From positions 1-62,559 of the IMG/VR virus record IMGVR_UViG_3300021090_000020: 62,559 nucleotides of DNA. One strand, 5' to 3'. Below, piece by piece: positions 30,050 to 30,871 of this stretch (its first letter is position 1; the number at the start of each line of letters is the position of its first letter). Below the pieces are notes generated by a model, which searched no databases, was not told where the DNA came from, and saw only the letters and a program-made list of their open reading frames with translations. The stretch comes from a virus. Its lineage: Duplodnaviria > Caudoviricetes. Both the position numbers and the translations under genes were made by a program.

Positions 30050-30871
30050 TTAACGATCCTGTGGTCCCGGCTCGCAGACTCGAACTGCGGTATCCGCGTC
30101 CACAGCGCGGCGCCCTACCCTTGAGTTAACCCGGGATTGCCAGTGCGTCGTATGCGCCTTTACCATAAAGGCGTTGATCCGAGCGCGGTCTGTTTTCCAA
30201 TCGCAATCCTTCAATAGCTCACGAAGCTGCATTTCGGCGGTGTCGATCATCCGCAGCGTTTCATCTTTCGTATATTTTCCCGTCCTGATGCCCCGCAGGA
30301 TGCTGAGGTTGGGTTCCGCGACCGGCAGTGTAATCGTGCGGCGCACGAGCATTTCGATACCCTCAAAAGCAAGCCGCATAGCGTGCATGGCAAACTTGGT
30401 ATCGAAGCCGTATTTGGCGACAAGCTCAGGCCGGTTGACCGTCTGATTACGCTGGCCGGTCATCTTCATCCTTTGAGCGACAAGATAGCCAAGGAAGCGA
30501 TCGCCGGATTCGCGGCTGATAAAAGCCTCGCGCATTTCGACTAGACCCGCGCCTAGTTCTGTCTTGGCCTCATGCGTCGGAAGCCATAGCAGGATCACCA
30601 CAGACGGATTGCCCTGCTCGGCAAGGCGGCAGAACTTGCGCAGGCTATACATTGTCAGGTCTAGGTCGCCCGCCTCACTACGGACGCCCTCTGGTTTGTC
30701 GCGATAGATGTAATGGTCACACGATGATAAACCGCAAACGTATTCCGGCGGTTCGATAAAGATGCCCATTTCGTCACGGTCATCCTGCCCGTCAACGGCG
30801 GTGCCATGTGCGGTTGACCCCACGACGCCGCGTAGGATTTCATTGCCGAGTGCTATTTCACGCGAGTTCAT
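30050..30871 (-). CDS. Pol-beta superfamily nucleotidyltransferase (RlaP/YcgL-like)
   Basis: VGSTAHG...DDRDEMGIF, D...YSLRKF..LA..GNP, KYGFDTKFAMHAMRL motifs. Confidence 0.85.
   Translation of the reverse strand: MNSREIALGNEILRGVVGSTAHGTAVDGQDDRDEMGIFIEPPEYVCGLSSCDHYIYRDKPEGVRSEAGDLDLTMYSLRKFCRLAEQGNPSVVILLWLPTHEAKTELGAGLVEMREAFISRESGDRFLGYLVAQRMKMTGQRNQTVNRPELVAKYGFDTKFAMHAMRLAFEGIEMLVRRTITLPVAEPNLSILRGIRTGKYTKDETLRMIDTAEMQLRELLKDCDWKTDRARINAFMVKAHTTHWQSRVNSRVGRRAVDADTAVRVCEPGPQDR
30062..30135 (-). tRNA. tRNA-His(GTG), no G-1, A73, encoded CCA, slightly degenerate
   Basis: Minus strand: CCCGGGT TA ACTCAAGGGTAGGGC G CCGCG CTGTGGA CGCGG ATAC CGCAG TTCGAGT CTGCG AGCCGGG A CCA. Confidence 0.8.

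Follow-up and report, generated by a model that had tools for sequence, protein, structure and literature searches.

The subject of this analysis is a gene pair in a 62,559-nt stretch of phage DNA (the window; IMG/VR record IMGVR_UViG_3300021090_000020), which is the entire virus record, linear and 100% complete according to CheckV. On the minus strand, an open reading frame (ORF) of 273 amino acids (positions 30050-30871) encodes a nucleotidyltransferase of the RlaP type, and the 3' end of the same frame contains a complete gene for tRNA-His(GTG). The tRNA gene, 74 nt long, occupies positions 30062-30135 on the minus strand and was identified both by ARAGORN and with the Rfam model RF00005 (45.7 bits, E 1.5e-6, with a gathering score of 29). 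Its CCA end is encoded (30062-30064), the discriminator base is A73, the acceptor stem opens with the pair C1-G72, and a T is located at position -1 (30136). The GTG anticodon lies at 30101..30103 on the minus strand, corresponding to ARAGORN position 33 and to tRNA nucleotides 33-35 in linear numbering. The initial annotation of this DNA had described a 74-nt tRNA-His(GTG) with encoded CCA, A73 and U at -1 in the 3' end of the ORF, and ARAGORN, Rfam and the sequence bear this out.

The conserved body of the enzyme, delimited by PF10127, phrog_388 and an alignment of 42 sequences, comprises codons 1-244 (M1 to W244; 30140..30871, minus strand), and W244 is the final invariant column of the alignment. 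It is followed by a C-terminal tail of 29 residues, QSRVNSRVGRRAVDADTAVRVCEPGPQDR (codons 245-273 plus TAA; 30050..30139, minus strand, from the ORF list and the sequence). The first base of the tRNA is the second base of codon 246, and the tRNA spans codons 246-270. Since just 4 nt separate the W244 codon from the tRNA, the tail is translated tRNA over nearly all of its length. The earlier equation of the last ~29 codons with the tRNA is thus right about the overlap and is corrected in extent, as it is the tail after W244 that counts 29 residues. The TAA stop codon (30050-30052) is found 9 nt past the CCA, with the codons CAG GAT CGT in between. The predicted RNase P site, placed from the sequence on the general pattern of tRNA processing, falls within codon 246 (30135..30136, minus strand), and the proposal that excision of the tRNA would remove the stop codon of the mRNA describes the geometry correctly, as read off the sequence.

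The identity of the enzyme as an RlaP-type nucleotidyltransferase was confirmed by profile search: the protein matches PF10127 (RlaP) with an E-value of 3.3e-26 and 92.9 bits (cut-off 23), and phrog_388 (nucleotidyltransferase) with an E-value of 1.1e-52 over residues 4-251. Residues G18, S19, D30, D31, D33, D69 and D71 are invariant in the 42 aligned homologues, which include the window protein; three of the invariant aspartates probably correspond to the catalytic ones of PfRlaP. Sequence and profile searches with the enzyme against the PDB were without match. The enzyme and five neighbouring ORFs gave no match in PADLOC, and neither the enzyme nor its neighbours matched NCBIfam. The crystal structure of PfRlaP is described as an N-terminal NTase domain and a C-terminal helical domain, with a three-helix bundle closed by the helix at the extreme C-terminus (PMC12776372). 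According to the same preprint, of December 2025, two Pseudomonas RlaP enzymes append one or two nucleoside monophosphates (NMPs) at RNA 3'-OH ends, need Mn2+, show little choice among nucleoside triphosphates (NTPs) and act preferentially on the 5' half of a mimic of tRNA cleaved in the manner of colicin E5; it names T4 NrdC.11 as a family member and reports the family to be widespread in phages and to occur in RtcB repair operons (PMC12776372). The association of RlaP with RNA-repair neighbourhoods, stated in the initial annotation, is in print (PMC12776372, PMC7824862). In several large, Bixzunavirus-like mycobacteriophages (H76-H84), the match to the enzyme is split in two places, and the annotation there reads HNH endonuclease or 'nucleotidyltransferase with HNH endonuclease', which suggests insertion of a homing endonuclease in the gene.

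The junction between enzyme and tRNA-His is inherited. A homologue search returned 3355 proteins at E <= 0.001, and the tails were classified in the best 120 clusters. In 28 of these, the tail is of the tRNA-His type (QSRFSSxVERRAVDAET..PGP) and equals the frame-2 translation of tRNA-His genes, as matched to the tRNA of two metagenome loci, L094 and L155. Short tails, with the stop codon at most 12 residues past the conserved H-x3-W motif (W244), are present in 51 clusters; four (P0025, P0057, P0065, P0119) have only a 5' fragment of the tRNA translation, and the remaining tails comprise 21 of a '..GLA..' type and 16 others. The 28 tail-bearing clusters cover about 65-87% protein identity, and the number of codons between the W and the CGG codon is two in 23 of them, one in four and three in one. 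DNA copies of the enzyme and tRNA-His together are three in number, the window, L094 (tRNA 1291-1364) and L155 (tRNA 176-250), the other tails being known as protein. L094 and L155 have an identical CAYTGGCAATCCCGG junction, and the ORF passes through the tRNA in both. The linkage for which a survey of homologues had been proposed is therefore shared by 28 of the best 120 clusters and by two DNA loci. The tRNA-bearing state is scattered over a tree of the protein cores (FastTree, midpoint root, support values not reported), and the gene neighbours beyond the tRNA are not conserved among the window, L094 and L155. A search with the tail only retrieved four proteins, all of them PF10127 members already in the homologue set. 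Among viral contigs, a pattern for the 5' half of the tRNA-His found none and a pattern for the 3' half found one, L179, a tRNA array without the enzyme. A BLAST search with the L094 junction against 401 genomes of one order gave matches in 9, and the six loci examined (L184-L189) contain the tRNA only, with no enzyme.

Selection acts on the RNA of this module. In an alignment of four phage-type tRNA copies (window, L094, L155 and the array copy L179), standard pairs occupy 97.6% of pair cells, and 7 of the 21 pairs change on both sides. None of 500 shuffles reached these pairing values, and shifting the structure by 1-3 columns leaves 33-48% of cells paired. Compensatory evolution is found in all four tRNA stems. 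The protein tails can be read in the same manner and form a second sample, larger than the first and independent of it. The codons of the anticodon stem (positions 28-30 versus 40-42) are pair-compatible in 28 of 28 tails (permutation mean 15.2; 28 was attained in none of 2000 permutations), with R always opposite A, and P, S or L opposite G. Across the T stem, 27 of the 28 tails have pair-compatible codons, which correspond to 13 different residue pairs; the permutation mean here is 12.65, and none of 2000 permutations reached 27. Cluster P0007, the sole exception, matches the 75-nt tRNA of the L155 type, in which an extra base shifts the frame. The tails thus covary as pairing in these two stems demands, which places the selection on the RNA and not on the peptide, and the peptide is free to vary wherever the stems permit.

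The read-through of the ORF into the tRNA looks passive. No stop codon fits between enzyme and tRNA, and hence the frame runs passively through the tRNA. The tail of P0032 terminates within the tRNA-coded stretch, at a stop that is probably TAG, from the CAG of its relatives. At -1, the 28 clusters have T (15 clusters), A (9) or G (4), and the spacer codon varies too. Both the early end in P0032 and the variable base at -1 argue that the read-through is passive, and we see no sign in these sequences of selection for it.

A link to tRNA genes is recurrent among the homologues, yet it is a minority condition. Downstream tRNAs were counted at the 130 DNA loci that cover the C-terminus with 100 nt or more of following sequence, and at seven of them a same-strand tRNA starts within 150 nt. 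The tRNA species are His (L094, L155), Ser (L007, L108, L109, which are near-identical copies of one phage region), Lys (L125) and Asn (L086). In L007, a 104-kb viral contig whose region is also found in L108, L109 and L215, the enzyme (3001-3831) is 68% identical to that of the window, and its gene lies 15 nt past a tRNA-Arg(ccg) in an array of 26 tRNAs in 6.7 kb; the ORF enters a tRNA-Ser(tga) by 37 nt and ends at the TGA anticodon of that tRNA. The stop codon in L086 is located 4 nt before the tRNA-Asn, and the tRNA-Lys of L125 is 78 nt downstream. Judged by back-translation, the tail of P0041, GVAQSVEQRTVNARVAGSSPA, which begins just after the conserved HW, would be read from a class-I tRNA that is well paired, has a GUN anticodon and A37 A38, and most resembles Asn, and P0041 may thus be a second kind of enzyme ORF running into a tRNA. 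Among 79 viral loci, a tRNA is present within 2.5 kb in 13 and directly after the gene in two.

The '..GLA..' tails were considered as another hidden tRNA, a possibility that we rejected; they represent a conserved region upstream of chromosomal ilvC. At 23 of 168 loci, ilvC directly follows the enzyme gene, the homologue there being mostly about 60-72% identical (L009, L011, L012, L091-L093, L095-L100, L102-L105, L107, L110, L111, L113, L119, L123 and L156). At the three of these loci where neighbours were scanned (L009, L091, L105), the gene is chromosomal, with genes for acetolactate synthase subunits on one side and ilvC on the other, and an FMN reductase gene together with an HxlR regulator or HTH gene lies between the acetolactate synthase genes and the enzyme. 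The '..GLA..' tail of the ORF overlaps a conserved CTTG...CCTAGAAGCA element upstream of ilvC, which looks like the ilvC promoter. In L110, L111 and L156 (about 4001-4792), the enzyme frame closes at 4675 and the tblastn match continues to 4792; an in-frame stop may be present, and these ilvC-adjacent copies are possible pseudogenes.

The tRNA-His of the window belongs to a phage lineage. A clade comprising Rhodobacteraceae, Rhizobiales, Caulobacterales and Hyphomonadaceae is reported to use tRNA-His with A73 and without G-1 (PMC3937112, PMC3064791), and the statement in the initial annotation that a large alphaproteobacterial clade does so is in agreement with these reports. The host-type tRNA-His genes that we inspected, from three alphaproteobacterial genomes with enzyme homologues (L169, L171, L174), are 77 nt long, with G1.U72, A73, a D-loop of 9 nt and no G-1. 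The phage tRNA-His shares with them A73, the absence of a templated G-1 (T at -1) and the GUG anticodon. However, the tRNA-His genes of the window, L094, L155 and L179 have C1-G72 where the host-type genes have G1.U72, and the phage tRNA-His, at 74 nt, has a 7-nt D-loop (AAGGGUA) and not the nine-nucleotide loop with U20a. The window tRNA is therefore not of the host's G-1-less type. The C1-G72/A73 tRNA-His of L179 is part of a phage tRNA array, and the 3.9 kb examined there contain no enzyme gene; this occurrence points to a phage lineage rather than to recent capture of a host gene. U72 is reported as a major identity element of the alphaproteobacterial histidyl-tRNA synthetase (HisRS): in charging by Caulobacter crescentus HisRS, U72C costs 91-fold and A73C just 3-fold (PMC3064791). 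A further phage-type tRNA-His, with C1-G72 and T at -1 but with C at position 73, was observed in a bacterial genome of the sampled order (L184, 1502-1734); a tRNA-Asn(gtt) follows 86 nt further on, and there is no enzyme gene within 1.5 kb.

The integrase gene of the window (37554..38705, minus strand; phrog_1, E 5.7e-41) identifies the phage as temperate. Up to the endolysin (27149-28213, plus strand; phrog_315), late genes occupy the plus strand; a leftward accessory block comes next, and then the integrase, RecT and early genes. Besides the enzyme-tRNA pair, the accessory block holds two paralogous two-gene cassettes, a tRNA-Leu(TAA) pointing rightward and a gene for a DNA methyltransferase. 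The enzyme-tRNA-His module is thus leftward in an accessory region flanked by lysis genes and int, with its tRNA ~7.4 kb from int. This setting recalls tRNA-dependent lysogeny as described for Fionnbharth and Cluster L, where the phages are temperate and a leftward tRNA lies between the lysis genes and int (PMC10865867); Cluster L phages have a homologous enzyme in the corresponding region too. By analogy, integration through a short core would wreck the host tRNA-His gene, the leftward phage tRNA-His, expressed in lysogeny, would replace it, and the enzyme would be a bystander. The temperate nature of the phage, its integrase, and a tRNA position and orientation as predicted for the complementing tRNA of Cluster L mycobacteriophages (PMC10865867) all fit this explanation, which we nevertheless regard as decidedly unlikely. 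No core shared with the three host-type tRNA-His genes was found near int, but this test is a weak one, as these genes need not be those of the true host. The longest matches of the window to host-type tRNA-His span 11-13 nt, fall within tail genes and are no better than chance, since of 200 shuffled queries 162, 81 and 21 gave matches of at least 11, 12 and 13 nt, respectively. A search for an attP core in common with the phage's own tRNAs likewise gave chance-level matches only. Moreover, a tRNA without U72 and the 9-nt D-loop would be a doubtful replacement, and a bystander enzyme leaves the fixed junction unexplained. In the mycobacteriophages Rumpelstiltskin and Chaser, the Cluster L pair that was examined, the homologous enzyme is equally leftward in the interval between lysis genes and int, with no tRNA adjoining or overlapping it.

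Since tRNA genes are common targets of integrases, the tRNA-His could also be the attP of the phage or the remnant of a host tRNA from an old prophage boundary. The lack of conserved gene neighbours past the tRNA in the window, L094 and L155 is compatible with such an integration scar, as is the presence in some relatives of only the 5' part of the tRNA translation. We consider this origin extremely improbable. The tRNA is complete and internal to a complete record, at its distance of several kilobases from int; it has no long stretch in common with host-type tRNA-His; the window contains no partial second tRNA copy; and the compensatory evolution extends across all four stems.

Directly upstream of the enzyme gene are the two tandem paralogous cassettes, consisting of four co-directional small ORFs (30897..32252, minus strand). 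Each cassette encodes a protein of 202 or 102 amino acids, with the C-terminal half in common, followed by an ORF of 68 amino acids, and the direct repeats are 77% (D2) and 85% (D4). The cassette ORFs have zero matches in PHROGs, Pfam, PADLOC and NCBIfam. To judge from spacing, the four ORFs are probably in one leftward transcription unit with the nucleotidyltransferase-tRNA pair. Defence genes expressed from prophages are often located in a region like that of the module, and MenT toxins reportedly extend tRNA acceptor ends. The enzyme might then be a MenT-like, growth-arresting protein that blocks tRNA 3' ends, for example in abortive infection by the prophage, with the tRNA as decoy, antidote or preferred target. 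The reported addition of nucleotides at RNA 3'-OH ends with little NTP choice (PMC12776372) would suit a toxin. Such a role appears very unlikely to us, and the earlier idea of a toxin plus RNA decoy finds no support: neither PADLOC nor NCBIfam recognizes the enzyme or its neighbours, the family is reported from RtcB repair operons and from T4 (PMC12776372), and homologues 65-71% identical are stable chromosomal genes in the acetolactate synthase-ilvC interval with no visible antitoxin.

ARAGORN finds two tRNAs in the whole window, the second being the tRNA-Leu(TAA) with a long variable arm (33181-33272, plus strand; Rfam 58.8 bits), in orientation opposite to the enzyme-tRNA-His unit. In the codon usage of 31 ORFs, TTA is rare (1.9 per 1000) and His codons are unremarkable (19 per 1000). 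With a weak consensus method, we found no minus-strand promoter-like sites within the enzyme gene and no terminator past the tRNA. A blastn search of positions 29000-32000 against a phage collection revealed no relatives at the nucleotide level, and when 20 neighbouring window ORFs were compared by tblastn with the 168 homologue loci and with 79 additional viral ones, none was matched. Elsewhere in the window, an ORF of 202 amino acids (44254-44862, minus strand) contains four tandem 60-nt repeats (44509-44807) with 65-95% identity to the reference copy and has a weak, sub-threshold LRR_4 match, and a gene with a radical-SAM domain (10106-10993, minus strand) is located amid the plus-strand late (structural) genes.

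We hypothesize that the enzyme gene and the tRNA-His(GUG) belong together as a two-part accessory module that a temperate phage of Alphaproteobacteria has inherited, in which an RlaP RNA 3'-end nucleotidyltransferase and a same-strand tRNA of phage lineage serve tRNA maintenance. It is the best explanation that we can offer, and as a whole we give it about an even chance of being right. The anatomy and conservation of the module, the selection on its RNA and the family of its enzyme are established by the sequences, and the working set out in what follows is a proposal. One leftward transcript would carry the enzyme and the tRNA, and RNase P would cut it at 30135/30136, freeing the tRNA and leaving the enzyme mRNA without a stop codon. 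A given transcript would then yield either full-length enzyme or tRNA, not both, because the cut mRNA would be stop-less. The pair could maintain a usable tRNA pool when ribonucleases of the host or of a competitor attack tRNAs, with the tRNA as replacement and the enzyme restoring one or two nucleotides at damaged RNA 3'-OH ends. The 29-residue tail would be a by-product that evolves under the base-pairing rules of the tRNA. Such a role in repair and supply fits the chemistry of RlaP, the view of phage tRNAs as countering anticodon nucleases (PMC10264068) and the role predicted for RlaP in jumbo phages, namely to put back nucleotides that were lost (PMC7824862).

Several observations weigh against this hypothesis. 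The window copy of the tRNA is the poorest of those compared, with 45.7 bits versus 47.2 for L155, 65.6 for L094 and 73.3 for a host tRNA-His, and both unpaired cells of the four-copy alignment belong to it. The G6.G67 mismatch and the weakened D-stem noted from the sequence are real: cmscan marks G6.G67 and A10.C25 as non-canonical, and U12.G23 is a wobble pair. For this copy, the lowest-energy fold predicted is not a cloverleaf and, at -28.9 kcal/mol, is more stable than the cloverleaf (-24.5 kcal/mol); the L094 tRNA, in contrast, is predicted to fold as a cloverleaf at its lowest energy. The window tail also has substitutions at four otherwise nearly fixed positions (F/L1 to V, S2 to N, E6 to G and E13 to D). 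This copy is weakened and looks relaxed, perhaps decaying, and may still work. Charging of the phage tRNA-His is uncertain, as it lacks U72. No same-strand tRNA was found within 150 nt at 123 of the 130 loci, none within 2.5 kb at 66 of the 79 viral loci, and none of the actinophage homologues examined is tRNA-adjacent. PF01139 (RtcB) and PF09414 (RNA_ligase), the two ligase families searched and the usual partners of RlaP enzymes, were not found in the whole phage record; as controls, the RtcB and RNA_ligase profiles matched in 10 and 8 of 14 genomes. Finally, the reading of the ORF into sequence upstream of ilvC implies that the enzyme tolerates arbitrary C-terminal tails, and the overlap consequently needs no function.

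These points bear on a neutral juxtaposition, in which an array tRNA landed after the enzyme gene, the stop codon was lost or never fitted, and the arrangement was inherited and repeatedly lost without any functional tie, the window copy now decaying. The initial annotation had itself named simple stop-codon loss beside a decaying tRNA, with homologues that end before the tRNA and are not tRNA-linked, as the scenario that would refute it. That scenario turns out to be half true: the short-tailed clusters, the large majority of loci free of an adjacent tRNA and the window copy as the most degraded one agree with it, and the 28 tRNA-tailed clusters do not. A neutral origin is favoured further by the four clusters with 5' tRNA fragments only, by the substitutions and the sole unpaired cells of the window copy, by the entry of the enzyme ORF into non-tRNA sequence at the ilvC loci, and by the phage-type tRNA-His without enzyme in L179 and L184. 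We regard it as the main rival, possible but less likely than the two-part module. Compensatory selection keeps the tRNA in the 28 clusters over their full range of protein identity, enzyme genes that closely abut a tRNA are also seen with three or more other tRNA species, an enzyme 68% identical to that of the window is situated within the 26-tRNA array, and the demonstrated RlaP substrates are reported to include tRNA fragments (PMC12776372).

It is also conceivable, although we consider it unlikely, that the overlap acts as a switch. Excision by RNase P would strip the stop codon, the enzyme would be made only from unprocessed transcripts, and the stop-less mRNAs would feed ribosome rescue. 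A bolder variant of the same idea takes up the U at -1, which is present in 15 of the 28 lineages and in the window: the cut mRNA would end in ...CAA-U, and two A's, added by the enzyme itself or by a poly(A) polymerase, would rebuild UAA in the way known from mitochondria. If the switch exists, the level of an RNA-end-tailing enzyme would be tied to the capacity for tRNA processing, and the C1-G72 tRNA-His without U72 might be a dedicated partner or decoy RNA and not a translational tRNA.

The module can be compared with several known systems. The RlaP enzymes of P. fluorescens and P. aeruginosa and T4 NrdC.11 belong to the same Pfam family, and the conserved G-S motif and acidic residues are present in the window enzyme. 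The activity on RNA 3'-OH ends, including cleaved-tRNA mimics, was shown for the Pseudomonas enzymes, whereas the window enzyme is known from its sequence; furthermore, its partner is an overlapping tRNA gene in place of a ligase. In mitochondria, tRNAs punctuate the transcripts, and in bacterial mRNA-tRNA co-transcripts such as secG-leuU the tRNA abuts the coding region. Excision of the tRNA in those systems would define the 3' end of the mRNA and could remove or truncate the stop codon, as here. The window differs from them in that the entire tRNA precedes the stop codon, that the setting is a phage and that the processing is predicted. Jumbo phages are reported to pair RlaP, a CCA-adding enzyme and tRNAs (PMC7824862). 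In phage tRNA arrays of this kind and in L007, a tRNA-maintenance enzyme is embedded among the tRNAs, and the L007 ORF likewise runs into the next tRNA; the window phage differs in being a 62.6-kb temperate phage in which the array is down to a single tRNA, the whole of it inside the ORF.

The enzyme family and phage tRNAs as such were already known. Conserved nesting of a whole tRNA in the frame of an enzyme and the C1-G72/A73 lineage of tRNA-His appear to be new, as neither was found in print. The literature surveyed, which excluded Burroughs and Aravind 2016 and supplements, contained no description of a phage tRNA nested in a coding gene or of RlaP beside tRNA genes. A complete, selected tRNA nested in frame in a protein gene is unusual for phages, and a tail that covaries by stem pairing is a clear case of an RNA constraint imprinted on a peptide. 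It also calls for caution in annotation, since gene-calling programs carry the ORF on across the tRNA. The combination of A73 and no G-1 with C1-G72 makes it uncertain in what way, if at all, the phage tRNA-His would be charged by the divergent HisRS of Alphaproteobacteria. For the RlaP family, whose biochemistry dates only from the preprint of December 2025 (PMC12776372), a clade fused to a specific tRNA gene, with relatives in tRNA arrays, points to tRNAs as clients in vivo, and the module offers a defined pair of enzyme and RNA for learning what these enzymes act on.

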